Source of the DNA: Pseudonocardiaceae bacterium
GTDB lineage: Bacteria > Actinomycetota > Actinomycetes > Mycobacteriales > Pseudonocardiaceae
Assembly: GCA_036266995.1 (NCBI GenBank)
Contig: DATAWX010000169.1
Span: 11,007-75,006, forward strand
Reading direction: 5' to 3'
Length of the DNA: 64,000 nucleotides
Position 1 is the stretch's first letter. Each line of letters opens with the position of its first letter. Positions 1,633-26,594 of this stretch are shown piece by piece. The notes below the pieces were generated by a model, which ran no database searches, was not told the origin of the DNA, and saw nothing but the letters and a program-made list of their open reading frames with translations. The position numbers and the translations under genes were made by a program.

Positions 1633-1880
1633 CGGCTTGAAAAGTTGCAGGTGAAACGCCGAGTCGTGATCTTAACGGTGCCGGAGTTTTCTTTAGCGTT
1701 GATCGTGCCTAAACCGTACTTCATTGCCGTGCCTGTGCGCCGTAAATCGCTGTTTCCTTGTTGTTCAGGTCCATCTTGCAGAGTTCCTTGTGCGAGGTGG
1801 CCTACGCAGGCCCGCCTCCCGAGCCGCACGGAATGGAGTGTCGCGTGGCAGGTTCGGTCCGATCCCGGCTCCTCGACCGC
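337..1880. repeat. Segmental duplication, copy 1 (GT2-GtrA gene, divergent promoter region and first codons of the PMT gene)
   Basis: Hand alignment to 8283-9840 shows near-collinear nucleotide identity across the whole gene. It continues through the intergenic block 'tgcgcctgtgcgccgtaaatcgctgtt' to about 'ggaatggag...tcggtccgatc'. Confidence 0.8.
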
Positions 1881-5224: not shown

Positions 5225-5455
5225 TGCAGCGGAACAGCAACCCGAGGTAGTGGCGGTTGTTCGACTGCCATACCTCCGGTGGCGGTGCGTCGTAGCGGGC
5301 GTTGTACGTCCATCGGAACATCATCAGCATGGTGGGTGACGAAGCCCGCCACTGCAGCACAGTTCAGGGCACGCCGTCGAAGCTGGAACGCGTCGCGAGT
5401 AGGAGGTCATGCGGCAAGGTCAGGTGCAGGCCGAGATCAGGCGGAATCCCCCGGC

Positions 5456-6379: not shown

Positions 6380-7039
6380 CCTCCCGGCGACGGAGCAGGC
6401 CTCGCTGCACCGCAGCTAAGAGGCATCGAACCGAGGCCTGCGCCCGACATACATGAGTAAGACGCTCATCTGATCGTGCCGGTCTTCCCTCCCACAAGCC
6501 CGCTACGCGACTCGCGACGAGTTGACGTCCGTCGTTGGTCTGCTGTTCACCAACGCCCGGGCTTTCGTGGTCCCGATGGGGACGGTGACCAGCAGATCAC
6601 GGACATCTATAGCGGTGCCTGAAACGACTCTGGCCGAAATCAGAATCCGCCCGTTTACCTCTAAAGTCATATCCTCCACAAGCTCGGCACCACCGACGTT
6701 TCCCGGTCTGCGGACGGGTCGGCGCTGTCGAGTTGTCGGGAGGTCAAGACCGGGGACAAGCGGGCTCTTCATGAGAGCGACTCAGCGCGGTCGAACGCCG
6801 TTCAATAAACGTTCACATCCGTCTTGCAGAGTCCCGCATGTGTCGGTCAGCGCCAGTCCGGGCATGAGGTTGCGGGGACCGGTTCGGGCGAGATCGTGGG
6901 TCGCGAGCTCACCCGGTCCACGCGAGCCTAAGATGCGTCACCATCGACGCTAAATCGCCCTGATTGCGCTCTCGCATCCCGTATTCGATACATATTTCGG
7001 TTAGTCTGATGTTCTTGTCGATCTGCAGGAGACGGAAGG

Positions 7040-8227
7040 GTGGCACCCCTGGAAACGGGCGAGATTCGGCATGGCGATCTGGGCGATCAACGTTCAGCAC
7101 AGTGTGCGCGGCTGCCATCCACGTGGAGTCTGCTCGGGCGTCTCGTTCTGCTCTGCGCAGGTATCCGCATCGGGCTCGAGGCCATAGGTTTGGTTTCGCT
7201 CGCCCTCCATGATCAGCCGGTCTGGACGAACGCGATTGATATGTGGAACCGGTGGGATGCGCCGCATCTGCTCCGGCTCGCCGAGGTGGGCTACGTCCGG
7301 TCATCGCCTCCGCCCAACACTGACGATCCGCTCTATATCGTCTTCTTCCCGCTTTTCCCGCTCGCCGTGCACATCGTCTCCCTCGTTGTGCAAAACCTAG
7401 TGCTGTCGGGGCTCGTCGTGTCGTTCGCCGCGAGCGTGGGAGCCGGCTACTTTCTCTTCAGATTAGTCGCCCTGGACGCCGAGGAGGCAGCGGCGTGGCG
7501 TGCGGTGTTCCTGCTGTTCTCCTTTCCTACTGCGTACTTCCTCGCTGCACCGTTCACGGAGGCTCTAGCCCTGTTCGCCGTGCTTGCCTCCGTCTACGCC
7601 GCGCGGACTGGCCGTTGGGCGGGGGCCGGAGTGGCCGGCGCACTCGCGACAGGCACCCGGGTGACGGGCATCGCCCTGGCTCCGGCGCTCCTTCTGGAGG
7701 TGCTCGCCAGGAAAACAAGCGTGAGCGATCGAGTCCGCGGGCTGGCGTGGGTCTCCCTCGCCGCGGCCGGTCTCCTGACCTATCTTGCGAGCAACCAGAT
7801 TGTTCACGGCGACCCGCTGTATTTCATCGAGGTGCAGCGGACGCATTGGTCCAACCAGGCCGCCCCCCCGTGGCAACCGGTGCAGGTAGCAATCGAATCG
7901 CTGTTAGCGGGCGGCAATGACTTCACATTCACGTTCATATACGTGGGTCGCGTCGCGGGGGTCCTCGTGGCGTTGCCACTCCTAGTCCTTGCGGTGCGGC
8001 GACTGCGACTGCCGGACGTACTTTATGGCTGGACGGCTTTCATCCTCACCCTGTCGTCATCATGGTTGATCAGCTTTCCGCGATACCTGCTCGTCCTGTA
8101 TCCGCTCTTCGTCGTTGGTGCAGGGCTTACTCGCTCACCCCGGGCGTTCATCCCGTTCGTGCTTTCCGGTACGGCTCTTCAAGTGTGGCTGATGTGGCGG
8201 TATTCTGTCGGTGAGTGGACCTTCTAA
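7040..8227 (+). CDS. PIG-V-like (GPI mannosyltransferase 2 family) integral membrane glycosyltransferase
   Basis: Family-typical N-terminal motif 'WNRWDAPHLLRLAEVGY...DPLYIVFFPLFPLAVHIVS' followed by ~9 TM helices. The start codon (GTG 7040) is uncertain. Confidence 0.65.
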   Translation: MAPLETGEIRHGDLGDQRSAQCARLPSTWSLLGRLVLLCAGIRIGLEAIGLVSLALHDQPVWTNAIDMWNRWDAPHLLRLAEVGYVRSSPPPNTDDPLYIVFFPLFPLAVHIVSLVVQNLVLSGLVVSFAASVGAGYFLFRLVALDAEEAAAWRAVFLLFSFPTAYFLAAPFTEALALFAVLASVYAARTGRWAGAGVAGALATGTRVTGIALAPALLLEVLARKTSVSDRVRGLAWVSLAAAGLLTYLASNQIVHGDPLYFIEVQRTHWSNQAAPPWQPVQVAIESLLAGGNDFTFTFIYVGRVAGVLVALPLLVLAVRRLRLPDVLYGWTAFILTLSSSWLISFPRYLLVLYPLFVVGAGLTRSPRAFIPFVLSGTALQVWLMWRYSVGEWTF

Positions 8228-8282
8228 TAACCCAACGACGACGGCTCTGGCTATCCGGCGGTAGCTGAACGCCTATGTTTAG

Positions 8283-9683
8283 TCAGGCCTTGCGAAACAC
8301 CCAGCGGCGCAACAGGAGGAACCGCAGTAAGGTGGTGGCAGCGCTAGCAGTGACGATCAGCGCAGGCTCGAGCGCGGCCGGTGGTGCGCTGTGCAGGGAA
8401 TGCGCCACGGCCAGCGTGCCGCTGGTCAGGCCCAGGGCGAGCCCGAAGACGATCAGGCCTTGAAGCTGGTGGCGGGTCCTACGCCGCGGACCGACAACCT
8501 CGAAGGTGAATCGCCGGTTGAGCGCCGTGTTCGCGATCGTGGTGCTCAGCAGGGTCAGAGCGTTGGCGCTCTGCGCCCCCAAAGGGTTGCGAAGGAGCAG
8601 GAACAAGATCAGGTACGCCACGGTGCTGAGCAGCCCGACGACTCCGAACCGCACTAGCTGGCGAGTCAGTCCTGCTGGTACGCCCGCTGTGGCCGGCTCG
8701 AGCGAGGTCCGGCCGAGCTGGGCGTGCAGGTCGTGTACCGGCAGTTTACCGGTGGCGAACGCGCGGACCAGCCGGGAAATCCCGCGGAGGTCGGCCATCG
8801 CGGTGTTGACGATGTGCACGCTGCTGTCCGGGTCGTCGATCCAGTCGACGGGGACCTCGTGGATCCGCAGCCCGCCGCGCTCCGCGAGGACGAGCAGCTC
8901 TGTATCGAAGAACCACGCGTTATCCTCGATCAGCGGCAGAAGATGCACAGCAACCTCGCGCCGGATGGCTTTAAATCCGCAGGTTGCATCGGAGAAGCGG
9001 GTGGACAGGGTGTGCCGGACCATCAAATTGTAGCTGCGGGAGATGAACTCGCGCTTCGCGCCGCGGATGACGCGCGACCCTCGGTGTAGCCGGGTTCCGA
9101 TGGCGAGGTCGGAGTGTCCTGAGACCAGCGGCGCGATCAGTGGCAGCACGGCCGCGAGGTCGGTGGACAGGTCGACGTCCATGTAGGCCAGGACAGCTGC
9201 GTCCGACGCCGACCAGACGGCGCGCAGCGCACGGCCCTTGCCTTTCTCTGGCATATGTACGACCCGTACCGATGGGAACTCCGCGGCCAGTCCCTTGGCG
9301 ACCTCAAGAGTGGTGTCGGTGCTCGCGTTGTCGGCGACGGTGATCTGGAACGGATAGGGGACCTCTGCGGTTAGGTGCGCATGCAGACGTCGCACGCACG
9401 GCTCAAGGTCGATTTCCTCGTTGTAGACAGGAATGACAATATCGACAACGGGCGAGAGCGCAGGCGGCTGCGAAGCACCGGACGTGCTGGCCGGGGCAAG
9501 GTTTCCGGACGTCACGTTGAAACAGTAAAGGAGAATGTCAACATCATTATTTGGGTTGCTCTGCGTGGATTGTTCGTCACCGGCAACGAAAGCTGCAGGT
9601 GGAACATCTCCACGGGGACGAGTGGCGGGTTCGCCGGCCCGAGCGTTTCCTTTAGTGTTGATCGTACCTAAGTAACGCTTCAT
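8283..9683 (-). CDS. Family-2 glycosyltransferase fused to a GtrA-like domain, copy 2
   Basis: Almost residue-for-residue paralogue of 337-1632 ('VVDIVIPVYNEEIDLEPCVRRLHAHLTAEVPYPFQITVADNASTD...'). The 80-aa N-terminal extension in this ORF is probably partly 5' leader. Confidence 0.85.
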   Translation of the reverse strand: MKRYLGTINTKGNARAGEPATRPRGDVPPAAFVAGDEQSTQSNPNNDVDILLYCFNVTSGNLAPASTSGASQPPALSPVVDIVIPVYNEEIDLEPCVRRLHAHLTAEVPYPFQITVADNASTDTTLEVAKGLAAEFPSVRVVHMPEKGKGRALRAVWSASDAAVLAYMDVDLSTDLAAVLPLIAPLVSGHSDLAIGTRLHRGSRVIRGAKREFISRSYNLMVRHTLSTRFSDATCGFKAIRREVAVHLLPLIEDNAWFFDTELLVLAERGGLRIHEVPVDWIDDPDSSVHIVNTAMADLRGISRLVRAFATGKLPVHDLHAQLGRTSLEPATAGVPAGLTRQLVRFGVVGLLSTVAYLILFLLLRNPLGAQSANALTLLSTTIANTALNRRFTFEVVGPRRRTRHQLQGLIVFGLALGLTSGTLAVAHSLHSAPPAALEPALIVTASAATTLLRFLLLRRWVFRKA

Positions 9684-10912: not shown

Positions 10913-13096
10913 TCAGGGTCCGTTGGTCGCCGTGACCGTGCTGGTCCTGCATGACTTGCCGACGTCGTAGTAGGAGACGTGGGCATCTGAGTAGACGCGG
11001 ACGAAGCCCCCTGGAAAGAGGTGAGGGTTGCGTTGCGGGAAGCGATCGGCCCGCGTCTCTCCGTCACTGACCTGGATATATGCGATGCCGGTGCCGCGCA
11101 GGCGCGTACAGACCGCCGCCTGGTCCGGTGCGTCGTAGATGCTCGCGATCCTATGCTCCCTCGACACATTGTCGTACCCCATGCTTTCGGCCCAGTACGA
11201 AAACCCGCCGAGGTAGACGGGCCGGCCAGCGAGCGTGGGAATCGTGTAGACGTCCCCGTACGCGGTCAAGAACACTGAGTTACGGCTCGTGTGATGTTCG
11301 ATCCAACTGATGGCGGGCTGGGCGTCGCCGAACACCGCGTATCGGGGGTCGTTCTTGACCGTCATGAAGTCGAGGAGCCCGGAGAGCACCAGGAAGAGGC
11401 AGGTTGCAGGTATCACCGCGACGGCGATGCCGCGTCCGGTGAGGGTGCCTCGCCGGCGGCTGCGCAAAGGCAGGCCGCGCCAGAGCGCGCGGGCCGTGCA
11501 GACGAGGGAGTAGGCGGCGAAAAGGTTGATCAGGACCTTCCACAGGTTGAAGACCTTGTGGTCGTGTCCACCGACATCGGTGCCTAAAACCACGATGTTG
11601 CCGAAGACGAAGATTGCCATGACAGCCACCAGAAGCTTATGGTCCGCTCTGCGCCCTACGACGGCTGCGAGGATGACGAGAGGGCCGGCGAGACCAAGGT
11701 TGAGCCACCAGTAGGAAACGAAGTCCAGGTACGACGCGGGATTCTGGAAACGGAAGTTCTCGACGAGATAGCCGTTGTGGAACGTGAGCGAGTTTTTTGT
11801 CCCGAGACCGCCGTTGAGCCAGATGATTTGGGGAAGCGCGAGCACTCCGGCTGCGATGAAGAAGGGCAGCGACTCGCGGACGGGTCCCAGCAGTACGAGA
11901 CCGCCGATTAACAGCAGTAGTGCCACCTTGCGGATCCCGTCGCTCTGTTCGAACGCGCCCGCGACGAACAGGCTCACCGACGCGAAGACCAGTACAACGC
12001 TGGGCATAGCCACCCTGCGCAGGTGACCGCTGTAGAGGTAGTACAGCACGCAGAAGAAGACCATGGACGCTACGAACACGATGCCGTTGAGCCAGAAGGC
12101 TGTTCCCGAGAGCACGCCTAGGACCGTCGCGCGTTCCTTAGGCAGGGGCTGGCGACGGTTGTCGTCGGCTTGTGCGTCGACGAGATCCCCGGCGATACCG
12201 CCGGGTCCGCGTAGATGGCGCAGAAGGGCATAACCGACGAAAAGGACGAGGGCCATCGACACGATGAGGTGTGTCTGGGTGAGGTAGGGGTTCAGCGTCC
12301 AGAAGATTGATATCCGCTCGCCACTCTGGTACGGGGCGCCCGCCAAGTACTTGTCGTGATTCCACCAGTTTTGGGGCTTCAGCGCCTCGATCACTGAGGG
12401 GTATTTGGCAAAGTAGCGAAGGAAGGCGAGCGAGCCGTTGGTGGCGAACAGGACCGCGGCCATGATACCGATGGAAACGCGCTGCCAGAGGTAGTAGGCG
12501 AGCTCGAAGACGAGCGCGATGATCGCGGTGAAGCCCAGCGCGCCGGGCAGGTTGAACGCCCATTCGATCGGCAGCCCCATGCGCTCCAGCGCGCCGGCGT
12601 AGAAGTCGAACCCGAAGTGGTAGTGGATCGTCTCCCCGCTGAAGATCGGGAGCACCGGCGGGTAGTTGTCGCCTTCGGAGAATGACCGCGCGATGCCGAT
12701 GTGGAGTGCCGTGTCGCCCCACGTGTTGAGCGAGACCATGAGCGGGTCACCGGATAGGCGCTGGAGCATCAACCAGCCCGACAGTGCCAGGGCGGCACCG
12801 ACGCCGAGTGTCGCGAGCGGTGGTGCGCGGAACGCGTCACGCCGGAACTCGCGCCAGCCCAGACCGATGATCACCGAGTTGACTCCCATGGCCACGAAGG
12901 CGCCATAGAAAGTCGCGTCGCTGCGGCCTAGGTCATGGATCAGCCATCCCGCGCCGAAAGTCACCCAGCCGGTGAGCGTGATGCTGACCACGAAGGCCCC
13001 GATGAGCCGCACAACGACGGGGAACTCCCGGAACACGCGTTGAACGATGACTAGCGCCGCCAGGAACGACAGCAGGAGATATGGCAGCACCAGCAT
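10913..13096 (-). CDS. Large polytopic membrane protein, GT-C-like (DUF2298/YYY-like), paralogue of 3335-5224
   Basis: About 16 TM helices, loop motif 'NTWGDTALHIGIARSFSEGDNYPPVLPIFSGETIHYHFGFDFYAGALERMG', soluble C-terminal domain. It lies 37 nt upstream of the methyltransferase on the same strand. GC is intermediate (~60% by eye). Confidence 0.6.
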   Translation of the reverse strand: MLVLPYLLLSFLAALVIVQRVFREFPVVVRLIGAFVVSITLTGWVTFGAGWLIHDLGRSDATFYGAFVAMGVNSVIIGLGWREFRRDAFRAPPLATLGVGAALALSGWLMLQRLSGDPLMVSLNTWGDTALHIGIARSFSEGDNYPPVLPIFSGETIHYHFGFDFYAGALERMGLPIEWAFNLPGALGFTAIIALVFELAYYLWQRVSIGIMAAVLFATNGSLAFLRYFAKYPSVIEALKPQNWWNHDKYLAGAPYQSGERISIFWTLNPYLTQTHLIVSMALVLFVGYALLRHLRGPGGIAGDLVDAQADDNRRQPLPKERATVLGVLSGTAFWLNGIVFVASMVFFCVLYYLYSGHLRRVAMPSVVLVFASVSLFVAGAFEQSDGIRKVALLLLIGGLVLLGPVRESLPFFIAAGVLALPQIIWLNGGLGTKNSLTFHNGYLVENFRFQNPASYLDFVSYWWLNLGLAGPLVILAAVVGRRADHKLLVAVMAIFVFGNIVVLGTDVGGHDHKVFNLWKVLINLFAAYSLVCTARALWRGLPLRSRRRGTLTGRGIAVAVIPATCLFLVLSGLLDFMTVKNDPRYAVFGDAQPAISWIEHHTSRNSVFLTAYGDVYTIPTLAGRPVYLGGFSYWAESMGYDNVSREHRIASIYDAPDQAAVCTRLRGTGIAYIQVSDGETRADRFPQRNPHLFPGGFVRVYSDAHVSYYDVGKSCRTSTVTATNGP

Positions 13097-14459: not shown

Positions 14460-16430
14460 CTAGGACCGTGGGGGCGGTGGGGTGGAGGACAGGTCGTACA
14501 GATCCGGCATGGTGAAGTCCGCGGCGCGGCGCCGGCCCGGTTGGTCGCCGGAGGGGGTCGGGATGTTGCGGCCGGGCCAGACGATCACCGAGGCGGGCGG
14601 GAGGGTGAGCCGGCATCGAGCACCGAGTGCCGGATGATCGCCGGCCCGGGTCTGCGCGGTCAGTTCGGGGCCGCCGTCCAGGGCCACCATTACCTCGTAG
14701 ACGGCCCCGAGACAGACCACGTCGCGGACGGCACCGGGGTGCCCGTCCGAGTCCTGCTCGACCAGGTCGTCCAATATCAGGTGCTCGGGGCGGATGCACC
14801 AGGTCAGCTCCGCGTCCAGGGCGGTGCCCGCCGGCAGGACGTCGGGTCCGAAGCCGATCCGTACCTGCCCCGCCACAAGCTCCCGTGCGCCGGTCCGCTG
14901 GCCGAGGTGCAGGTTGCGGATGCCGAGCAGTCGGGCGGCGGTCGGGCTGGCCGGGCGCGCGAAGACCGCGGGTTGCGGGCCCGCCTGTTCCACCTGGCCC
15001 AGCTCCAGAATCAGCACTTCATCGGCGAGCAACGCCGCCTCGATGGGGTCGTGTGTGACGATGACGCTGGTGATCGCGGTGTCGCGTTGCAGGCGGCGCA
15101 GCTCGTGGCGCAGCTCGTCGCGGACCGGCGCATCCAGGCCAGTGAACGGCTCGTCCAGCAGCAGCAGCCGCGGGTTGCGGGCCAGCGCGCGGGCGATCGC
15201 GACCCGGCGCCGTTGGCCGCCGGACAGCTGCGACGGCAACCGAGCCTCCAGCCCGGTCAGCCCCAGCCGTCTGATCCAGAATGCGGCCAGTCCGGGCTCG
15301 GTGCCGACCCCGAACATCACCTGCTGCCACACCGGTAGGTGCGGGAGCAGGGCGGCATCCTGCGGGACGTAGCCGAACCCGCGGTCCTCCGGCGCCACCG
15401 CGGTGACATCGGCACCGTCGAGACACACCTGCCCGCCGGTCGGCCGGATCAGCCCGGCCAGCATCCGCAGGGTCAGGCTCTTGCCGGATCCCGATGCTCC
15501 GAGGATGGCCAGGTGCCGACCGGTCCTGGTGGTGTGCGCCACCTCGACCTGGAACGAACCCAGCCGGCCGGCCAGGTCGAAGGTCAGCTGCGGGCTGGCC
15601 GACGAGGTGGGGGCGCTCGGCGCCGGCAGCGGGTCCGGCACCGGGTGCCGCCGGCGCAGCCGGGGGAGGTACGCGGCCAGCAGCAGCACCACCGCGGCCG
15701 CGCCCAGGCTCGCCCCGACCGCGGTCAGCGTCGAGGTGATCCCGGTGCCGCCGAACTGCACGTAGGTGAACACCGGCACCGAGAACGGGTGGTAGGCGAG
15801 TACCACGGTGGCGCCGAACTCGCCGAAGGCCCGCAGCCAGGCCAGCAGCAGACCGGCGGCGATGCCCGGCGCGGCGGCCGGGGCCGCCACCCGGGCGAAC
15901 CGCGACCACCGGCCGTGCCCGAGGGTGGCCGCCACGTCGTCCAGGGCCGGGTCCAGCGCGGCGAACGCCGAGCGGGCGGCCACGATCAGAAACGGTGCCG
16001 CGACGAAGGTCTGGGCCAGTACGATACCGACCCGGGTGTCGGTCAGCATGCCGCCGAAGAGCTGCCCGAGCGGCGTGTACGGGCCGACCAGGTAGATCAA
16101 CAGGATGCCGCTCATCAACGGTGGCAGCGCCAACGGCAGCTGCACCGCGACCCCGACCACCGTCGAGCTTCGCCCGCGGCCCCGGGAGAGCAGGTAGCCC
16201 AGCGGGATCCCGAGAACGGCGATGATCGCTGTCGAGATGCTGGCTGTCTCCACCGACACGGCCAGTGCCGAGCCGAGCCCGGGAGTGGCCAGTGCGCTGG
16301 CCGGGGTATCGGCCACCCGGATCAGGTAGGCGAGGATCGGGACCAGCAGGTATAGCGTCAGCAGCCCGGCCAGCCACGGCAGCGGGGTGCGGAACATGAG
16401 CGCCGCCCCCCCGGCTGGCCTGGCGGTCAT
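14460..16430 (-). CDS. modBC: Molybdate-type ABC transporter, fused permease (ModB) and ATPase (ModC)
   Basis: N-terminal permease with EAA loop 'LDPALDDVAATLGHGRWSRFARV'. C-terminal ABC domain with Walker A 'GASGSGKSLTL', signature 'LSGGQRRRVAIARAL', Walker B 'LLLLDEPF', then a TOBE-like tail. Substrate is inferred from context (modA, TOBE regulator, mosAB). Confidence 0.8.
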   Translation of the reverse strand: MTARPAGGAALMFRTPLPWLAGLLTLYLLVPILAYLIRVADTPASALATPGLGSALAVSVETASISTAIIAVLGIPLGYLLSRGRGRSSTVVGVAVQLPLALPPLMSGILLIYLVGPYTPLGQLFGGMLTDTRVGIVLAQTFVAAPFLIVAARSAFAALDPALDDVAATLGHGRWSRFARVAAPAAAPGIAAGLLLAWLRAFGEFGATVVLAYHPFSVPVFTYVQFGGTGITSTLTAVGASLGAAAVVLLLAAYLPRLRRRHPVPDPLPAPSAPTSSASPQLTFDLAGRLGSFQVEVAHTTRTGRHLAILGASGSGKSLTLRMLAGLIRPTGGQVCLDGADVTAVAPEDRGFGYVPQDAALLPHLPVWQQVMFGVGTEPGLAAFWIRRLGLTGLEARLPSQLSGGQRRRVAIARALARNPRLLLLDEPFTGLDAPVRDELRHELRRLQRDTAITSVIVTHDPIEAALLADEVLILELGQVEQAGPQPAVFARPASPTAARLLGIRNLHLGQRTGARELVAGQVRIGFGPDVLPAGTALDAELTWCIRPEHLILDDLVEQDSDGHPGAVRDVVCLGAVYEVMVALDGGPELTAQTRAGDHPALGARCRLTLPPASVIVWPGRNIPTPSGDQPGRRRAADFTMPDLYDLSSTPPPPRS

Positions 16431-17362
16431 CGGCCGCCGGGAGCTGAGCTGGTCGTGGGAGTCGCCGGAGCACTGGCCGTCGTCGGCAGGACTGACTTCA
16501 GCGCCGGCGGCACCGCGGCCGGATCACCGTAGAGGGCCAGCGGCAGCACCGTCAGGCCGTCCTCCTTCAACAGCTCCTCGCCCGCTGGGGACACCAGGTA
16601 CTGCACGAAGTCCGCGGCCGGTGCGGGGTCCGGGGCCATGTTCAGCACCGCCACGGTGTAGGTCGCCGCCAGGTGCACCTGGTCGAGGCTGGCGGTCTGG
16701 ATCTTCTGCTCGCCCGCCTCGTTGCTGTAGAAGAAGCCGGCATCGAGTTGGCCGGACTCCAACCGACCGACCAGTTCGGTCTCCGGCAGTACGGTGATGT
16801 TCTGCTGGGCGGCGGCCGGCAAGGCAGGATCGCTGTAGATCTTCGCGCCGTCGGTGAGTGCCTGCTGCGCGAGCTTGCCCTTGGGGTCGACCTTGGGATC
16901 GGTGCTGCCCAGCTTGAAGCCGGGCTCGGTGATCACCTGGTACCACGGCTTGGATTTCAGGTCGGCGGCGAACTTCGAGTTCGGGTTGTAACCGATCACC
17001 AGCGGCGCCGAGGCGAACTTCACATACCAGGGCACCCAGTTGCCGTTGGCCGGCCCTTGCAGGTCCGCGTTGACCGTAGGGCTGGCGCTGATGAACACGT
17101 CACCCTGGCGAACCTTGCCCTTGATCTGCGTGGCCAGTGCACTGGATCCGGCGCTGAAACCCTGGAAGGTGTCCCCGCTTGCCTGCTCGAACTTCGGGCC
17201 GAGGCTGTGTTCCATCAGGTTGACCAGCGAGCCGGCATAGAGCACCTTCACCGGACCCTTCGGCCCGGTCGACGTGCCGGCGGTACCGCCGCCCGAACTG
17301 CTACACCCCGTCAACGCCACCAGCATCACGGTCAGCACTCCGACCGCGCCTTTGACCCGCAT
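16427..17362 (-). CDS. modA: Molybdate/tungstate ABC transporter substrate-binding lipoprotein
   Basis: Lipobox 'LVALTGCSS'. Periplasmic-binding fold motifs 'VKVLYAGSLVNLME...GFSAGSSALATQIK...GDVFISASP'. 4-nt overlap with modBC. Confidence 0.75.
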   Translation of the reverse strand: MRVKGAVGVLTVMLVALTGCSSSGGGTAGTSTGPKGPVKVLYAGSLVNLMEHSLGPKFEQASGDTFQGFSAGSSALATQIKGKVRQGDVFISASPTVNADLQGPANGNWVPWYVKFASAPLVIGYNPNSKFAADLKSKPWYQVITEPGFKLGSTDPKVDPKGKLAQQALTDGAKIYSDPALPAAAQQNITVLPETELVGRLESGQLDAGFFYSNEAGEQKIQTASLDQVHLAATYTVAVLNMAPDPAPAADFVQYLVSPAGEELLKEDGLTVLPLALYGDPAAVPPALKSVLPTTASAPATPTTSSAPGGR

Positions 17363-17374
17363 CCGTTCTGCCTC

Positions 17375-17824
17375 CTAGGTTTTTGACTGCTTTGCCAGGC
17401 TCGCCCGGGCGAGGGCGTCCCGAGGCTGCTGGGGCAGGGTGACGACGACGCTGGTGGATTTCACCGAGGCCACGGCCAGTACGCCGGGCTCCAACCCGAG
17501 CTCGTCCACCGCCTCGGCGGACATCAGCGACACGATCCGGTGCGGTCCGACCTGGATCTCCACCTTGGCCATCACCTGGTCCCGGATGACCCGGGTGACC
17601 AGGCCCGGTAACTGGTTGCGGGCAGACGCGGGCAGATGCGGGACGGCTTCTTCGGTATCCGCGGCGAGCGAGGTGGCGAACCGAGCCAGCTCAGCCCCGT
17701 CCACTCCGCGCCGACCGGACTCGGTGGTCGTGGAGACGAATCGGCCGGCGTCGGCCCAGCGCCGCAGCGTGTCATCGCTGACTCCGAGTAGGCGGGCGGC
17801 CTCACCGATCCGGAACACAGGCAT
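17375..17824 (-). CDS. Transcriptional regulator: excisionase/MerR-type HTH fused to a molybdate-binding TOBE (Mop) domain
   Basis: 'FRIGEAARLLGVSDDTLRRWADAGR' HTH. C-terminal 'SARNQLPGLVTRVIRDQVMAKVEIQVGPHRIVSLMSAEAVDELGLEPGVLAVASVKSTSVVV' is a typical TOBE domain. First gene of the mod operon. Confidence 0.8.
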   Translation of the reverse strand: MPVFRIGEAARLLGVSDDTLRRWADAGRFVSTTTESGRRGVDGAELARFATSLAADTEEAVPHLPASARNQLPGLVTRVIRDQVMAKVEIQVGPHRIVSLMSAEAVDELGLEPGVLAVASVKSTSVVVTLPQQPRDALARASLAKQSKT

Positions 17825-18042
17825 CGTGACAGCCTAACCGCAGACGCGGAGTCGAGACAGGGCTACCGACGTAATTGAGATCTTCACTGTGAACGAAGTC
17901 CGCAGGTGCCGACCGTACCGACGACGAGCACGCAGTGGCGGATCGAAACCGGCGTACGCTCCGCTGATAGGTCCTAGACCGGCGCGTACTTCCGCTTGTG
18001 CGTAAACGATCTCCATGCGATGATGTCCCGCGCGGGGGGGTA

Positions 18043-18088
18043 GGGTTGTGCGGCCGCCGCGTGGGGGGTTTGCGCGGCCGCACAACCC
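18043..18088. promoter_or_regulatory. Perfect 15-bp GC-rich inverted repeat in the mod/mos divergent intergenic region
   Basis: 'gggttgtgcggccgc' (18043-18057) and 'gcggccgcacaaccc' (18074-18088) separated by 16 nt. Candidate operator or RNA stem-loop; function unknown. Confidence 0.3.
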
Positions 18089-18285
18089 ACAGCTTCGCGA
18101 AGACCACTCTTCTGGATGATAACGCCGGTGTAGCGGGTCAGGCCATGCCGTGGCCCCGCCACAGCGGTGCGTTCTGCCCGGTCATCTCCGCAGGTCTGTA
18201 CTGCCGCTCAGTCGTCGGCCCCTCCCCAGTGCGCGTCATCGCGTCTAAAGTCGATGATAAGTCCTGGTAATACGGGGAGGGTCAC

Positions 18286-19107
18286 ATGACAACAGATGTC
18301 GCGAGTAGAGCTTCGCTGGAATCGTTATTGATGAGTCGGCCGTTGAGTGACCCGGAACTCATGCGGGCAAGTGATATGGCGCCCGATTACGCCATATTGC
18401 CTGACGTGAGCGTGATTAAAATCGGTGGTCAAAGCCTGATTGACCGTGGTAGGGCTGCGGTGTATCCCCTGGTGGATGAGCTGGTGGCGGTCAAGCGGAG
18501 CCATCAGATCCTCATCGGTACCGGTGCCGGAACCCGGGCTCGGCACCTCTATTCACTCGCGGCCGAGCTCGGTCTGCCGACCGGTGTGCTGACCGATGTC
18601 GGCTCCGCGGTCGCCGATCAGAACGCGCAGATGATGGGATATCTGATGGCCCGCCACGGTGTTCCGGTGGTGGGCGGGTCGGCGTTCGGCGCGCTGCCGC
18701 TGTACCTGGCCGAGTGCGGTGCGGCGATTTTTTCGGGAATGCCGCCCTACGACATGTGGCAGCGCGTGCCCAATGAGGGAGTGATACCGCCCTACCGCAC
18801 CGATGCCGGATGCTATCTCGTGGCAGAGGTCTACGGCTGCGCCAACATGATTTATGTCAAGGACGAGGACGGGCTGTATACGGCCAATCCGAAGACCGAC
18901 CGGAGCGCCACGCTCATTCCGGAGATCACCGTCGAGGAGTTGATCGCCGCGGATCTGCCCGATCTGGTTATCGAGCGCCCGGTGTTGGAGTTGATGCGCC
19001 GCGCCCGGCACGTGCGGTCGGTTCAGATCATCAACGGGCTGCGCCCTGGTTTGCTCAGGCGCGCGCTGGCCGGCGAGCACGTCGGCACGATCATCTCGGC
19101 AGCCTGA
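18286..19107 (+). CDS. mosB: Molybdenum storage protein (MoSto) beta subunit, amino-acid-kinase/UMP-kinase fold
   Basis: From memory of Azotobacter vinelandii MosB, long collinear identities: 'VIKIGGQSLIDRGRAAVYPLVDE', 'LIGTGAGTRARHLYS', 'FSGMPPY', 'GVIPPYRTDAGC', 'VKDEDGLYTANPKT', 'RALAGEHVGTII'. Good SD 'ggggaggg' before the ATG. Confidence 0.85.
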   Translation: MTTDVASRASLESLLMSRPLSDPELMRASDMAPDYAILPDVSVIKIGGQSLIDRGRAAVYPLVDELVAVKRSHQILIGTGAGTRARHLYSLAAELGLPTGVLTDVGSAVADQNAQMMGYLMARHGVPVVGGSAFGALPLYLAECGAAIFSGMPPYDMWQRVPNEGVIPPYRTDAGCYLVAEVYGCANMIYVKDEDGLYTANPKTDRSATLIPEITVEELIAADLPDLVIERPVLELMRRARHVRSVQIINGLRPGLLRRALAGEHVGTIISAA

Positions 19108-19164
19108 GAGCTGCCGCCCCGCCGGCTGAGCCGGCAACCGAACCGCCGTCGCCCGCCAGCCATT

Positions 19165-20022
19165 TTGGAGAACGTTATGACGAACACTCTGTCGCAGTCC
19201 GAGGGTTCCTTCGCGGCGAAGGACGTGCCTTCGCCGTTGATGCGCCAGACCTTGCTCGACCGCGAACTCGTGCGGCCCCTGGACCGACCGGTGATCCCGC
19301 TGCTGCCGTGGCTGAACGTGGTCGTTCTCGGTGGCCGGTCGATCATGGACAAGGGCCGCGACGCGGTAGTGCCGGTCGTCGAGGAGTTGCGCGCCGCACT
19401 GCCGGAGCATCGGATGCTGATCCTCACCGGTCCCGGCATCCGGGGCCGTCACGTGCTGGGCGTCGGGCTCGATCTCGGCCTGCCCACCGGGGTGCTCGCC
19501 GCGTTGACCTCCGCGGAGGCGGAGCAGAACGGGCATCTCATCGCGGCGTTGCTCGCCGAGCAGGGCGTGTCCTACCTGTCGCACGCGACGATCGCGCACC
19601 AGCTGGCCGTGCACCTGGCCGCCAGCCGGGCCGCGGTATCCAACGGATACCCACCCTACGGGATCTACGAGTTCCCTCCCGACGTGGGCAAAATCCCCCC
19701 GCACCGCACCGACACCGGGGCCTTCCTACTTGCTGATGCCTACGGCGCCGCCCGCCTCATCTACGTCAAAGACGTCGACGGTGTGTTCACCAGCGACCCG
19801 GCGTCAACCAACGGCAGCCCAGCCGAGCTCATCCCTCGGATCGGGGCCGCTGCGCTACTGGCCCGCAAGCTCGACACCCTGCCCGTCGACGCGCTGGTGC
19901 TCCAGCTCATGGCGTACGCGAAGCACCAGAAAGAGATCCAGATCATCAACGGGCTCAAATCCGGCAACATCAGCAAGGCCCTGCAAGGAGAACACGTAGG
20001 CACCATCGTCCACGCGGACTGA
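19165..20022 (+). CDS. mosA: Molybdenum storage protein (MoSto) alpha subunit
   Basis: From memory of A. vinelandii MosA: 'RQTL.DR.L.RP', 'LLPWL.VV.LGGR', 'VEELR..LPEHRMLILTG.GIR.RHV.GVGLDLGLPTG', 'AEQNGH', 'IPPHRTDTGAFLLADAYGA', 'LQGEHVGT'. Confidence 0.85.
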   Translation: MENVMTNTLSQSEGSFAAKDVPSPLMRQTLLDRELVRPLDRPVIPLLPWLNVVVLGGRSIMDKGRDAVVPVVEELRAALPEHRMLILTGPGIRGRHVLGVGLDLGLPTGVLAALTSAEAEQNGHLIAALLAEQGVSYLSHATIAHQLAVHLAASRAAVSNGYPPYGIYEFPPDVGKIPPHRTDTGAFLLADAYGAARLIYVKDVDGVFTSDPASTNGSPAELIPRIGAAALLARKLDTLPVDALVLQLMAYAKHQKEIQIINGLKSGNISKALQGEHVGTIVHAD

Positions 20023-20051: not shown

Positions 20052-20606
20052 TCAGAGTGGCGGCTTCTCGAGGAACACCCGATTGACGTTGCTGACATAG
20101 CGCCCGCCGCTGATGTCGCCGGGCACGACCAGTCGCGGCCCGTCGGTGGCCAGCGAGTGACCGTCCTCGCTGGTCGCCAGCAACACTTCCTTGTTCTCGA
20201 AGCCCGGATCGATCTCGCCGTAGGCCACCAGCGCCCGGTAGCCATCGGTCGCGCTGACGCTGACATAGTGACGCAACTTGTCATTCTTGATCGTCGGGTC
20301 GAACTGCGGGCCCGCCTGGGTGAGTACGTCGACCAGAAGCGGGCCGACATAGGTGTGAGTCTGGGAGCCGTTACCGGCCTTGAACGTCACAGTCTCGGTA
20401 TGCGCCGGCAGAGCCGCCAAGGCGTGCACGTCAAGGAGCGCTGGGTGCGCGACGTCGCCGATCACCAGGAACTTGCCGGTCAGCACCCCGGTGAGTGGTG
20501 GCAGGTTGGGCGCGGAGGTGCTAGCGACGGCGCCGGCACTGGCGAACGCCGTCAGGGCGAGCACAGCGAGAGCAGCACACAACCGCAGTACGGGTAACCG
20601 AATCAC
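20052..20606 (-). CDS. Small secreted protein resembling the molybdopterin-binding oxidoreductase (Oxidored_molyb / YedY-like) domain
   Basis: Chosen start is GTG 20606, with SD 'aaagga' 7 nt upstream and signal peptide 'VIRLPVLRLCAALAVLALTAFASAGAVAS'. Body: 'LDVHALAALPAHTETVTF...GPLLVDVLTQAG...SATDGYRALVAYGEIDP...GPRLVVPGDISGGRYVSNVNRV'. The longer track ORF (to 20756) has an implausible N-terminus. Confidence 0.5.
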   Translation of the reverse strand: MIRLPVLRLCAALAVLALTAFASAGAVASTSAPNLPPLTGVLTGKFLVIGDVAHPALLDVHALAALPAHTETVTFKAGNGSQTHTYVGPLLVDVLTQAGPQFDPTIKNDKLRHYVSVSATDGYRALVAYGEIDPGFENKEVLLATSEDGHSLATDGPRLVVPGDISGGRYVSNVNRVFLEKPPL

Positions 20607-20881
20607 GATGGGATCCTTTCGATTGAGAACCAGGGTGCATGGGCTGGGGCTCCGCGGCGCCGCCCTACCTGGGTGGCGAGGGCGTCCAGGCGGACGACCG
20701 TGGTCGGCAACAGCGCGCGAGTGGTGCGCTGTTATAAGGAAATTCTTAGTTCGCATTGGTACCCTTGGCGACGCAGGGATGCCCGGACTGCTGTCCGGGC
20801 AGGCACAGTCAGTGACTGGCGAACCAGTGGCATGCCAACCACGTCGTCACTGATGTCTTGCACACAGGGAGTGAGTGGGTC

Positions 20882-24304: not shown

Positions 24305-25798
24305 GTGGCCACGCGCGATGCTGTGGAGGTGCATGAGGACACGGAGCGATGTGTGCGGGCGGTGCAGTCTAAGGACGCACGGTTCGACGGCTGGTTTCTC
24401 ACCGCGGTGGTCACCACCGGTATCTATTGCCGGCCGAGCTGCCCGGTGGTACCGCCCAAGGCGGTCAACATGCGTTTCTACCCGAGCGCTGCCGCAGCGC
24501 AGCTGGCCGGGTTCCGCGCCTGCAAGCGGTGCCGACCCGACGCCAGCCCCGGATCTCCGCAATGGAACGAGCGAGCCGACCTGGTGGCCAGGGCGATGCG
24601 GTTGATCGCCGATGGGGTGGTCGATCGCGAGGGTGTCCCCGGCCTGGCTGCGCGGCTGGGTTACAGCGTCCGGCAGGTTCAGCGGCAGGTGCTCGCTGAG
24701 TTGGGGGCCGGCCCGCTGGCGTTGGCGCGAGCGCAGCGTGCCCAGACCGCGCGGCTGCTGATCGAGACGAGTTCCCTGCCGATGAGCGACGTCGCGTTCG
24801 CCGCGGGTTTCGGCAGTGTCCGGGCGTTTAACGACACTGTGCGCGAGATCTTCGCCTTGGCTCCGACCGATCTGCGGGCGCGTGCCGCGCGCCGGCACCC
24901 GCCGGACACCTCGGGATCGTTGGTGCTGCGGCTGCCGTTCCGCGCGCCGCTGTGCCCCGACAACCTGTTCGGGCACCTCGCGGCGACGGCTGTTCCGGGG
25001 GTGGAAGAGTGGCGTGACGGCGCCTACCGTCGCACCTTGCGCCTGCCGCACGGCCATGGTGTCGCAACCCTGCGACCGCTGCCGGATCACATCGACTGCC
25101 AGTTGACCTTGACCGACCTTCGGGACCTGACCACGGCGATCACCCGGTGCCGGTGGCTGCTCGACCTCGATGCCGACCCGGTGGCCGTCGACGACCAGTT
25201 GCGCACCGACCCGATACTCGCCCCGCTGGTCAACAAGAATCCTGGCCGCCGGGTGCCTCGCACCGTCGACGCGGCGGAGTTCGCGGTACGTGCGGTGCTC
25301 GGGCAGCAGGTCTCCACCAAGGCGGCCTGCACCCACGCCGCCCGGTTGGTGGCCGCGTATGGCGAGCCGGTGGACGACCCGGCCGGCGGCCTGACCCACC
25401 TGTTCCCGGACACGGCGGCGCTGGCTTCGCTCGATCCGGCCGCGCTCGCCCTGCCACAGACGCGCCGTCGCACGCTCATCGCCCTGGTCGGTGCGCTGAC
25501 CAGCGGCGACGTCGACCTCAGTACTGGCAGTGACTGGCAACAGGCCCGCGCGCGACTCGGCGCTCTGCCAGGTTTCGGACCCTGGACCATCGAGTCGATC
25601 GCGATGCGCGCGCTCGGCGATCCGGACGCTTTCGTGCCGACGGACCTGGGAATCCGGCGCGCCGCCGAGCACGTGGGCCTTCCCTCGACCGCCGCTGGAC
25701 TGACAGCTCATGCCAGTGCCTGGCGCCCGTGGCGGGCTTACGCCGTGCAGTACCTGTGGGCGACCGGCGATCACGCCATCAACCGGCTACCGGCCTAA
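24305..25798 (+). CDS. Fused Ada N-terminal (Zn methyl-phosphotriester repair plus AraC HTH) and AlkA (DNA-3-methyladenine glycosylase II)
   Basis: 'DARFDGWFLTAVVTTGIYCRPSCP...FRACKRCRPD' (Ada Zn site). AraC HTH 'LAARLGYSVRQVQRQ...SSLPMSDVAFAAGFGSVRAFN'. HhH-GPD region 'VLGQQVSTKAA...LPGFGPWTIESIAMRALGDPDAF'. Confidence 0.9.
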   Translation: MATRDAVEVHEDTERCVRAVQSKDARFDGWFLTAVVTTGIYCRPSCPVVPPKAVNMRFYPSAAAAQLAGFRACKRCRPDASPGSPQWNERADLVARAMRLIADGVVDREGVPGLAARLGYSVRQVQRQVLAELGAGPLALARAQRAQTARLLIETSSLPMSDVAFAAGFGSVRAFNDTVREIFALAPTDLRARAARRHPPDTSGSLVLRLPFRAPLCPDNLFGHLAATAVPGVEEWRDGAYRRTLRLPHGHGVATLRPLPDHIDCQLTLTDLRDLTTAITRCRWLLDLDADPVAVDDQLRTDPILAPLVNKNPGRRVPRTVDAAEFAVRAVLGQQVSTKAACTHAARLVAAYGEPVDDPAGGLTHLFPDTAALASLDPAALALPQTRRRTLIALVGALTSGDVDLSTGSDWQQARARLGALPGFGPWTIESIAMRALGDPDAFVPTDLGIRRAAEHVGLPSTAAGLTAHASAWRPWRAYAVQYLWATGDHAINRLPA

Positions 25799-25814
25799 CT
25801 GAAAGGATCATTTC

Positions 25815-26594
25815 GTGCGAGTACACACCGTGGTGGACAGCCCCGTCGGCCCTCTTGCCCTGGTTGCCCTTGACGGCACCCTCGCCGGCCTTTACATGGA
25901 CCTGCAGCGGCATCGTCCGCCGGCGGAGATGTTCGGCGACTCGGATTCCACGCCGTTCGCCGAGGCGATCAGGCAGTTGGAGGAGTATTTCGCTGGCCAA
26001 CGTACCGCTTTCGACCTACCGATGAATCTCGTTGGGACCCCGTTCCAGCGCACCGTGTGGTCCGCTCTGCAGGAGATCCCGTACGGGGAAACCTGGTCCT
26101 ACGGCCAGCTCGCCGACCGGATCGGACGCCCCGGCGCCGCCCGGGCGGTCGGCCTGGCCAACGGTCGTAACCCGATCGGCATCATCGTGCCGTGTCACCG
26201 CGTCGTGGGCGCTACTGGTGACCTCACCGGCTACGGCGGCGGCCTGGAGCGCAAGCGACACCTGCTCGACTTCGAGCGCCAGCGGGCCGGATCTGCTCGC
26301 GCAGACACCCTGTTCGAGGTGGCTGCTTTCGCGCGCACGCCAACCGACCCCGGTAGTGGTTCGCCTCAGAACGGGGGAATGCCGTCGCGGAGGTCGGGTT
26401 CTGGTGGTGGTTCGGGCTCGGCTTCAGGTGGTGGTTCGGTCCAGATCTCTGAGCCCTCCCAGTCGTCGTCGGCCGGGAGCAGCAGGGCATCGGCGGGCGA
26501 TCGGGAGTTGGCGGTTCCGGTAGCGGTTCAAGGATCGGGGGTGGTGGCCGGCGATAGTGACCCCGCGGGGCCGACATTTAGCTGGATTCGCTGA
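25815..26594 (+). CDS. ogt: Methylated-DNA-protein-cysteine methyltransferase (Ogt/MGMT) with a ~95-aa Gly/Ser-rich C-terminal extension
   Basis: '[24 protein letters not shown]...[17 protein letters not shown]' with the PCHRV active site. The tail 'GSGSPQNGG...[15 protein letters not shown]' is low complexity. Confidence 0.85.

Follow-up and report, generated by a model that had tools for sequence, protein, structure and literature searches.

To our knowledge, the molybdenum storage protein (MoSto) has been studied in Azotobacter vinelandii alone. In that organism it deposits polyoxometalate clusters totalling about 100 atoms of Mo or W in an ATP-dependent manner, its level is similar at all Mo concentrations, and it has been claimed to be without known homologues (PMC6448029). 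MoSto is usually ascribed to "some N2-fixing organisms", and the molbindins are the other known route of Mo/W storage (PMC11980592). The gene pair described here, mosB and mosA of an uncultured member of the Pseudonocardiales, is an uncharacterised member of the known MoSto family with an altered alpha pocket. It lies in a 64 kb stretch of DNA, the whole of which was analysed and is called the window below (Table 1).

Table 1. Features of the mosBA locus and its surroundings in the window
Feature	Coordinates	Strand	Basis and remarks
permease-ATPase fusion, ModB-ModC-like, C-terminal TOBE_2	14460..16430	-	Pfam BPD_transp_1, ABC_tran, TOBE_2
substrate-binding protein, ModA/WtpA-like, of a molybdate/tungstate-type ABC transporter	16427..17362	-	Pfam SBP_bac_11 1.1e-32
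regulator, MerR/excisionase-type HTH plus one TOBE (Mop/molbindin) domain	17375..17824	-	Pfam TOBE 2.9e-14, MerR 5.4e-10
divergent intergenic region, presumed promoters and operators	17825..18285		461 bp
mosB, MoSto beta-subunit orthologue	18286..19107	+	273 aa; phmmer against PDB, Pfam AA_kinase, BLASTP
mosA, MoSto alpha-subunit orthologue	19165..20022	+	phmmer against PDB, BLASTP, AF2/Foldseek, residue tables
secreted protein, possible associate	20052..20756	-	convergent with mosA; Pfam Oxidored_molyb 23.2 bits (gathering score 24)

Orthology of the two genes

Each of the two open reading frames finds its own MoSto subunit when all PDB sequences are searched with phmmer. The best match of the first is the MoSto beta chain 2ogx_B (E 2.5e-118, 397 bits, residues 7-272 aligned to 4-269), as against E 1e-50 and 176 bits for MoSto alpha and E 1.9e-8 and 38 bits for the best UMP kinase. 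The second is closest to the alpha chain 2ogx_A (E 7e-91, 308 bits), with MoSto beta at E 5e-58 and 200 bits and UMP kinase at E 8e-7 and 32 bits, and the E-values of UMP kinases are some 100 orders of magnitude poorer than those of MoSto. When BLASTP is run directly against the A. vinelandii genomic genes, full-length identity is 66% for MosB and 55% for MosA; the two window proteins, encoded by adjacent genes on the same strand, are 44% identical to each other. In a neighbour-joining tree the alpha and beta sequences form separate clades, and in each of them the window protein falls in an actinobacterial clade with the proteobacterial one as its sister. A Foldseek search with an AF2 single-chain model of the window MosA (pLDDT 79.8) places MoSto alpha chains at the top (TM 0.78-0.81), followed by beta chains and then by UMP kinases (TM ~0.62). 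The reciprocal best matches, the separation of alpha from beta in the tree and the match in fold together support the two genes as orthologues of MosB and MosA and not of PyrH, and the identity proposed for them in the initial annotation is upheld subunit by subunit.

The start codon of mosB is an ATG with GGGGAGGG ahead of it. The mosA reading frame can be opened at TTG 19165 (285 aa), and ATG 19177 (281 aa) would more likely be the start because GGAG lies 7 nt upstream of it. Alignment with A. vinelandii MosA shows that the motif of the alpha N-terminal arm, SPL.RQTL.DR.L.RP, is conserved in the window protein.

Distribution and gene order

A scan of species-representative genomes found a relative in 373 of them, and 78 of the best 80 belong to the Actinomycetota, mostly as MAGs of Pseudonocardiales and Solirubrobacterales; more than 7,900 metagenome and genome proteins match at E<=1e-20. 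On these numbers the pair can hardly be called uncommon in genomes of this kind, as had first been supposed. The actinobacterial context itself was correctly recognised: the nearest genomes are MAGs of Pseudonocardiales, in which gene order is conserved and nucleotide identity is 86-89%. Throughout the 81 loci compared (the window and the best 80 of the 373 relatives) mosB is followed directly by mosA; the genes stand in this order in A. vinelandii and Methylocystis too, which takes from the B-then-A arrangement the distinctiveness once attached to it. Many of the matching proteins already bear the name "molybdenum storage protein" in KEGG/JGI.

Neighbourhood of mosBA and the stored metal

The description of mosBA as divergent from a mod-type uptake operon is accurate: regulator, binding protein and permease-ATPase fusion all lie on the minus strand. 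The regulator, which carries the motifs SARNQ and KSTS in its TOBE domain and scores 55.0 bits with the NCBIfam Mop model TIGR00638 (cut-off 55), is presumed to be a molybdate/tungstate sensor. No neighbour of mosBA is commoner than a Mop-domain regulator (19 of the 81 loci); mod-type genes lie nearby in about 13 further or overlapping loci, and many related loci, L081 among them, have no Mo-related neighbours. The stretch between the divergent genes contains a 15-bp inverted repeat without mismatches (18043-18088), and several of its sequence blocks are conserved across five related MAGs. Searches for sigma-70 consensus promoters and intrinsic terminators around mosBA returned none, and Rfam families, including the Moco riboswitch, gave nothing relevant in the 13-23 kb part of the window. 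A structured 5' leader of mosB was considered and rejected; the fold returned by RNAalifold for six related sequences, in which a conserved CCACTCTTCTGG block pairs with the Shine-Dalgarno region of mosB, is not supported because compensatory change is seen in 2 of 63 pairs and the covariation term (+2.81) is unfavourable.

The suggested link with nitrogenase finds no local support. A diazotrophic host that draws on its store for FeMo-cofactor is the customary picture of MoSto, though not a strict mark of the family. The 64 kb window holds no nif genes and no classical Mo enzymes, and tblastn with an approximate NifH query sequence detected no homologue, either in the window or within the flanking DNA (up to 10 kb per side) of the 80 relatives. 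Nor was a Mo-dependent client enzyme identified within the window. The Oxidored_molyb-like protein encoded next to mosA was rejected as a conserved client: its score is below gathering, it has no PDB sequence match, and its gene varies among close relatives, being missing from four of the five closest (L001, L002, L004 and L005) and partial in L003; homologues do occur near mosBA in L053, L057 and L073. The clients are probably molybdopterin enzymes and not nitrogenase.

The transporter bears on the question of which metal is stored. At family level its domains are clear (Table 1). Its binding protein reaches 86.8 bits with the WtpA model of NCBIfam (cut-off 355) and 36.5 bits with modA (cut-off 62.5), and the permease-ATPase fusion matches Mo_ABC_porter, modB, modC and WtpB/C, every one under its cut-off. 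Because the binding protein scores higher with WtpA than with modA, both below cut-off, the metal may be either Mo or W. One could go further and propose a MoSto-type cage whose cargo is tungstate, or a mixture of Mo and W, and which acts as a W store or a W-detoxifying sink. A second WtpA score of 70.4 bits, likewise sub-cut-off, points the same way, as do the polyoxotungstate-loaded MoSto structures PDB 2OGX and 7ZSE; in A. vinelandii, W binding by MoSto occurs both in vivo and in vitro, and the protein guards against W toxicity (PMC6448029), and W-specific TOBE domains are possible (PMC11980592). We nonetheless consider a tungstate cargo unlikely, since the WtpA, WtpB and WtpC models all fail their cut-offs and no tungstoenzyme gene lies within the window. 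Tungstoenzymes, moreover, are found chiefly in anaerobes, whereas the hosts here are soil Pseudonocardiales and Solirubrobacterales.

Conserved beta site and altered alpha pocket

Residues were compared between the 81 actinobacterial sequences, that is the window and the 80 other loci, and 120 proteobacterial MosA sequences from a second homologue search. A library of 50%-identity representatives, in which 78 entries, many of them fragmentary, match at E<=1e-30, places actinobacterial and proteobacterial MosA in very few clusters and does not resolve clade-specific residues. The beta site is uniformly conserved. The window MosB keeps Lys45, equivalent to A. vinelandii beta-Lys42, the residue changed in PDB 6RIS ("Kb42S variant"), together with GMPPY containing Met152 (beta-Met149) and the nucleotide motif DGLYTANP; beta-Lys42, beta-Met149 and GMPPY are invariant in 81 of 81 actinobacterial MosB. 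On the alpha side the nucleotide motif of the window protein is kept as DGVFTSDP, and alpha-His140, alpha-His130 and PPY are retained in at least 79 of the 81 actinobacterial MosA. Alpha-His140, which is His146 of the window MosA, is kept in 80 of these, with an alignment gap in the remaining one, and in all 120 proteobacterial sequences; we take it to be, by its number, the histidine ligand of the three-fold-axis Mo3/W3 cluster. The Mo cluster of MoSto has three symmetry-related His ligands (PMC4504029).

Elsewhere the alpha pocket has changed. The window MosA carries Val50 for alpha-Lys45, Ser135 for alpha-Glu129 and Gly162-Ile-Tyr for alpha-His156-His-His, and alpha-Lys45, alpha-Glu129 and alpha-His156 are absent from every one of the 81 actinobacterial MosA. 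Among the proteobacterial MosA, by comparison, Lys45 is present in 120/120 and His156 in 119/120, and position 129 is Glu in 115 and Asp in 5. Alpha-Glu129 and alpha-His156 are covalent ligands of the Mo8 cluster in A. vinelandii MoSto (PMC4504029), and an H156A variant of MoSto is deposited as PDB 6H6W; these covalent ligands may be traits of the pocket of the studied protein and not necessarily features that define the family. Of the positions with conservation of 90% or more in proteobacterial MosA, 35 carry replacements in the actinobacterial clade; the two clades share 107 of 264 alpha positions, each conserved with the same residue. The early expectation that the key pocket residues would be present thus held for the beta ATP-site and gate residues and for alpha-His140, and failed for alpha-Glu129, alpha-His156 and alpha-Lys45. 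Because these three are missing throughout the clade, Mo capacity and cluster chemistry may differ substantially from those of the A. vinelandii protein.

The same losses could be taken to mean that the actinobacterial proteins are a molybdate-handling ATPase that has lost bulk storage and serves molybdenum-cofactor synthesis as a small buffer or a means of delivery, not as a store of about 100 atoms. Such a reading would accommodate the clade-wide loss of both covalent Mo8 ligands and of the HHH motif, the 35 replaced positions, and the lack of nitrogenase context in the window and the flanks of the 80 loci. Most clusters of A. vinelandii MoSto, however, are held non-covalently, by van der Waals contacts and hydrogen bonds (PMC4504029, PMC6294228), so the loss of two ligands need not abolish storage; with alpha-His140 and the 107 shared alpha positions conserved across both clades and the residues of the beta pump invariant, an ATPase of this kind is very unlikely.

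With the NCBIfam pyrH models (TIGR02075/TIGR02076) the two reading frames score 50.5 and 41.7 bits against a cut-off of 158 in one case and 25.3 and 31.8 bits against 243.9 in the other, and in comparison with reference sequences, PyrH included, MosA and MosB are the best matches, as had been anticipated. That both are ordinary enzymes of the amino-acid-kinase family (UMP kinase, isopentenyl phosphate kinase or similar), as might be read from the general AA_kinase family being the sole Pfam match of either, from NCBIfam having no MoSto model and listing pyrH and IPPK as weak matches, and from the "uridine kinase" label on several MAG homologues in NCBI annotations, is highly improbable in view of these scores, of PDB UMP kinases at E>=1.9e-8 against 1e-118 and 1e-91 for MoSto, of their TM of ~0.62 against ~0.8, and of the obligate adjacent alpha/beta pair in 81/81 loci.

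Proposed mechanism and significance

It is very probable that mosB supplies the beta and mosA the alpha subunit of a MoSto-type complex storing Mo (or W) in an uncultured member of the Pseudonocardiales. We infer the following course for the assembly of the hexamer, its ATP-driven loading, the identity of the metal, the regulation and the clients. By homology with A. vinelandii, three alpha-beta dimers would close into an (alpha-beta)3 cage, and such a heterohexamer is likely for the window proteins because so many conserved alpha positions are the same in the two clades. The beta subunit would bind ATP/Mg and molybdate in its amino-acid-kinase groove, and hydrolysis of ATP at this site would drive molybdate through the cage wall past the gate methionine, after which molybdate inside the cage would condense to polyoxomolybdate clusters; the roles of the MoSto beta site and of Met-beta149 have reportedly been treated by Brunle et al. 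in PNAS in 2019. The alpha subunit probably still binds nucleotide, since DGVFTSDP is retained, and the loss of the catalytic lysine of the kinase family suggests that it is most likely non-catalytic and structural. The retained alpha histidine would ligate the cluster on the three-fold axis, and the set of clusters formed should differ from that in Azotobacter because the Glu/His pair that covalently anchors Mo8 is absent. The MerR-HTH/Mop regulator and the adjacent molybdate/tungstate importer probably couple expression to the supply of oxyanion.

The window pair in itself is ordinary, a recognisable orthologue already named by KEGG (K00947). What gives it wider relevance is the large uncharacterised actinobacterial MosBA clade to which it belongs, often mis-named "uridine kinase", in which the beta pump is intact and the alpha subunit systematically altered. 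We suggest tentatively that actinobacterial MosBA forms a distinct MoSto subtype, with an alpha subunit that is catalytically dead for want of Lys45, no covalent Mo8 site, an intact beta pump, a molybdate-sensing MerR/Mop regulator and molybdopterin clients in soil Pseudonocardiales and Solirubrobacterales that do not fix nitrogen. In that case the cage would template a different set of clusters, and ATP-driven polyoxomolybdate storage would be a general strategy of soil bacteria and not an adaptation of nitrogen fixers. Characterisation of the clade would reveal which residues of the pocket storage can do without, and would show if the alpha nucleotide site is important and if the molybdopterin enzymes of abundant soil actinobacteria draw on stored Mo.

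Comparison with known systems

MoSto of A. vinelandii (2OGX, 4F6T, 4NDO, 6GU5, 6RKD) is likewise encoded by two adjacent paralogous genes of the amino-acid-kinase fold, mosB then mosA. Beta-Lys42, beta-Met149/GMPPY, the motif DG.[YF]T..P, the alpha N-terminal arm and alpha-His140 are common to it and the window pair, and the predicted fold agrees (TM ~0.8). The two differ in the alpha subunit, where A. vinelandii has Lys45, Glu129 and His156-His157-His158 and the actinobacterial clade has none of these. They differ also in setting: the window host is actinobacterial, with no nif genes nearby, and its pair is divergent from a Mop regulator and a mod/wtp transporter, whereas no Mo genes lie within ~5 kb of the A. 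vinelandii locus. The proteobacterial MosA/MosB proteins (Azotobacter, Azomonas, Rhodocyclus, Azoarcus, Methylocystis, Xanthobacter, Beijerinckia, Bradyrhizobium, Candidatus Nitrotoga) belong to the same family and share the two-gene layout. Their MosA form a tight clade with 82-90% identity to A. vinelandii MosA; the window MosA, at 55-61% identity to them, belongs to the sister actinobacterial clade.

A UMP-kinase-like protein is thought to be the ancestor of MoSto, and UMP kinase (PyrH) and other amino-acid kinases have their fold and ATP-binding motifs in common with the window genes, but they show just 17-23% identity to these, which form a heteromeric alpha/beta pair. The molbindins (Mop, ModG, Tub) and ModE share the TOBE/Mop oxyanion-binding domain with the window regulator. 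Molbindins bind few oxyanions and do so passively, whereas MoSto encloses polynuclear clusters in a cage driven by ATP, and the domain layout of ModE is unlike the MerR/excisionase-type HTH with a single TOBE domain that is found in the window regulator.

Identity of the pair

The initial annotation had placed both open reading frames correctly and had read them as the genes of a molybdenum storage protein (MoSto), and on this point subunit-specific matches, BLASTP identities, tree and fold all agree, so that orthology to MosB and MosA is secure. In a search of every PDB sequence, ORF1 aligns along its whole length with MoSto subunit beta (E 2.5e-118, 397 bits), against 1e-50 for MoSto alpha and 1.9e-8 for the best UMP kinase, and ORF2 matches MoSto subunit alpha (E ~7e-91, 308 bits), against 5e-58 for beta and 8e-7 for UMP kinase. 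BLASTP identity to the genomic A. vinelandii genes is 66% for MosB and 55% for MosA, and the window's MosB and MosA share 44% identity. An AlphaFold2 model of the window MosA (mean pLDDT 79.8) is closest to MoSto alpha chains (TM 0.78-0.81), with beta chains next and UMP kinases (~0.62) behind them. In a neighbour-joining tree the alpha and beta clades stand apart, and each splits into a proteobacterial subclade and its actinobacterial sister, to which the window protein belongs. Pfam assigns both ORFs to the general AA_kinase family and no other; NCBIfam holds no MoSto model, and both ORFs fall far under its pyrH cut-offs. These scores, which favour MoSto over PyrH by far, rule out a plain UMP or isopentenyl-phosphate kinase, as does the conserved alpha/beta pairing. 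For mosA, ATG 19177, with GGAG 7 nt before it, is a more likely start than TTG 19165.

Features of the window
Feature	Position	Strand	Remarks
Glycosylation cluster	337-9683		Two GT2-GtrA fusions, protein O-mannosyltransferase (PMT), PIG-V-like mannosyltransferase
ORF without Pfam match	10913-13096	-	727 aa; in the window's lowest-GC stretch (10-12 kb; 0.566 vs ~0.66)
Fused permease-ATPase with TOBE_2 domain	14460-16430	-	656 aa; divergent from mosB
SBP_bac_11 binding protein	16427-17362	-	Divergent from mosB
Regulator, MerR/excisionase-type HTH and one TOBE/Mop domain	17375-17824	-	Divergent from mosB
Perfect 15-bp inverted repeat	18043-18088		GGGTTGTGCGGCCGC / GCGGCCGCACAACCC, 16-nt spacer; between regulator and mosB
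Conserved block	18104-18119		CCACTCTTCTGGATGA
mosB Shine-Dalgarno/start region	18274-18290		
ORF1 (mosB)	18286-19107	+	273 aa; ATG start; ribosome-binding site GGGGAGGG upstream
ORF2 (mosA)	19165-20022	+	Open from TTG 19165; 281 aa from ATG 19177
Secreted protein	20052-20756	-	Downstream, convergent; molybdopterin-binding oxidoreductase domain match sub-threshold (23.2 vs 24 bits)
Ada/AlkA fusion gene, then O6-methylguanine methyltransferase gene	24305-26594	+	Alkylation-repair pair, syntenic in related MAGs
DDE transposase (DDE_Tnp_1_4)	49212-50600	-	

Distribution

The pair had been thought uncommon in such genomes, a view that its distribution does not bear out. MosB relatives occur in at least 373 genomes in a scan that took a single genome for each GTDB species, a lower bound because the search used two peptide patterns only. 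The best 80 of these 373 each share 77% identity or more with the window MosB, and comprise 78 Actinomycetota (Pseudonocardiales/Pseudonocardiaceae, Solirubrobacterales, Mycobacteriales, Streptosporangiaceae) and two bins labelled Chloroflexota, the only cultured strain among them being Pseudonocardia yunnanensis JCM 9330. More than 7,900 proteins in a large collection match MosB at E<=1e-20, the best 120 of them each at least 78% identical. JGI names such proteins 'molybdenum storage protein', and KEGG has a mosAB orthology entry, K00947 (PMC13188454); together with the genome scan and protein matches, these names indicate a pair that is common in soil Actinomycetota and recognised by annotation schemes. 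At NCBI many actinobacterial MosB homologues are called 'uridine kinase' and proteobacterial ones 'molybdenum storage protein subunit alpha/beta', a pattern suggesting that the actinobacterial clade has been systematically mis-annotated. The closest genomes are five Pseudonocardiales MAGs, L001-L005 (MosB 96-98% identity, nucleotide 86-89%), with the window's gene order from the transporter through the Ada gene, and this closeness and synteny place the window in an uncultured Pseudonocardiales lineage.

Gene order and neighbourhood

The B-then-A order, previously singled out, is shared by A. vinelandii (a 270-aa MosB gene, then a 276-aa MosA gene), Methylocystis and 80/80 related loci. As first described, the pair diverges from an uptake operon, whose regulator, binding protein and permease-ATPase all lie on the minus strand across a 461-bp spacer. 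The regulator carries the molbindin motifs SARNQ and KSTS and exactly reaches the cut-off of the NCBIfam Mop-domain model (55.0 against 55). The transporter parts are similar to ModABC as well as to the tungstate system WtpABC, and 'molybdate/tungstate-type importer' is the defensible name because every equivalog score lies below cut-off. For the pair itself, a tungsten-specific store is a less likely reading than a cage for molybdate or tungstate. The permease-ATPase fusion is also kept in the related loci L002, L004, L005 and L067.

When all genes within 8 kb of the pair were clustered across the 81 loci, the commonest neighbour was the MerR-HTH/TOBE regulator (19/81), which in the window's lineage and in several Solirubrobacterales lies upstream and divergent, in other loci downstream. 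Binding-protein and permease genes of Mod type are present at ~13/81 loci, and a PhoU-domain gene lies directly 3' of mosA at 10/81 (e.g. L037:1776-2480). Many loci have no Mo-related neighbour; at L081, for example, DUF3099 and DUF3039 flank the pair within a housekeeping region. Another Pseudonocardiaceae lineage (L022, L031, L040; e.g. L031:2513-6812) has regulator, modA-like, modB-like and mosB-mosA genes in this order on one strand. The secreted protein, for which no PDB sequence match was found, is partial in L003 and absent in L001, L002, L004 and L005 among the close MAGs, and has homologues near mosBA in L053, L057 and L073.

Elsewhere in the 64 kb are glycosyltransferases, MFS transporters, regulators, Ada/Ogt repair genes, a transposase, which marks a mobile element, a truncated globin and malic enzyme; the low-GC region at 10-12 kb may, from its composition, be foreign DNA. 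Neither a nif gene nor a classical molybdoenzyme was found within the window, and a NifH query matched nothing there or at any of the 80 related loci, so that the nitrogenase link raised in the initial annotation is unsupported locally.

The divergent spacer

The spacer carries sequence blocks conserved in five related MAGs. Its inverted repeat is the only one of its kind in the window (0 expected by chance), and the arms are kept in those MAGs, the inner spacer differing in length and sequence; it may serve as an operator or form a hairpin in RNA or DNA. Adjacency to the Mop-domain regulator suggests that the pair may be under oxyanion-responsive control. No Rfam family, the Moco riboswitch included, matched near the pair. 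RNAalifold pairs the conserved block with the mosB Shine-Dalgarno/start region, a leader fold that would mask the ribosome-binding site; covariation is essentially nil (2/63 pairs), which leaves a translational control element for mosB unproven. Seven Solirubrobacterales loci (L041, L043, L047, L052, L055, L058, L075) have a short divergent spacer (~90-140 bp) upstream of mosB with a conserved TGCCTAGATGAGCTACGCT motif, which in L041 is a CCTAG-N5-CTAGG palindrome and is unlike anything in the window's spacer.

Probable cage function and the alpha subunit

The pocket residues, which the initial annotation had named as a check on the identification, are conserved in beta and only in part in alpha. 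In all 81 actinobacterial MosB sequences beta-Lys42, the kinase-family lysine altered in PDB 6RIS ('Kb42S variant'), is invariant, as are beta-Met149 and the GMPPY motif. ATP, Mg and molybdate reportedly bind in the beta groove, with Met-beta149 as proposed gate (Brunle et al., PNAS 2019). In the alpha subunit the N-terminal arm is conserved, and alpha-His130 is present in 79/81 actinobacterial MosA. Alpha-His140, the three-fold-axis His ligand, is found in 80/81, the remaining one being an alignment gap. Three symmetry-related His ligands are described in A. vinelandii MoSto, where two side chains, alpha-Glu129 and alpha-His156, bind an Mo8 cluster covalently (PMC4504029); an H156A variant is PDB 6H6W. 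These two residues and alpha-Lys45, the kinase-family lysine, are replaced in 81/81 actinobacterial MosA: the window has Ser at 129 and Gly at 156, the other 80 have P/S/Q/T (never E) and G/E (never H), and position 45 is V/A/T/S throughout. The loop standing in for the HHH motif is modelled with the lowest confidence of any internal part of MosA.

The best-supported reading is that the pair forms a MoSto-type (alpha-beta)3 cage, in which ATP hydrolysis by the conserved beta subunit would load the cavity with molybdate or tungstate, which would condense there into polynuclear clusters. The alpha subunit, which retains the nucleotide-binding motif DGVFTSDP, is probably structural because the catalytic lysine is absent, and without the covalent Mo8 site the cluster set should differ from that of Azotobacter. 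A low-capacity molybdate chaperone is less likely than such a cage; non-covalent contacts hold most clusters of the studied protein (PMC4504029, PMC6294228), so bulk storage could persist.

The window pair adds an uncharacterised member to a known family, and the aspects that merit experiment are the clade-level residue pattern and the distribution among presumed non-diazotrophs. Judged by aligned residues, a large actinobacterial clade including the window pair has an alpha subunit systematically unlike that of the only studied protein: 107/264 alpha positions are conserved with the same residue in the two clades, and a further 35, conserved to 90% or more in the proteobacterial clade, are replaced in the actinobacterial one. 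In contrast to the latter, the 120 top-ranking relatives of A. vinelandii MosA, among them Azotobacter, Rhodocyclus, Azoarcus, Methylocystis, Xanthobacter, Bradyrhizobium and Nitrotoga, keep K45 in 120/120, E129 in 115 (D in the other 5), H156 in 119/120 and, as the actinobacterial proteins do, H140 (120/120).
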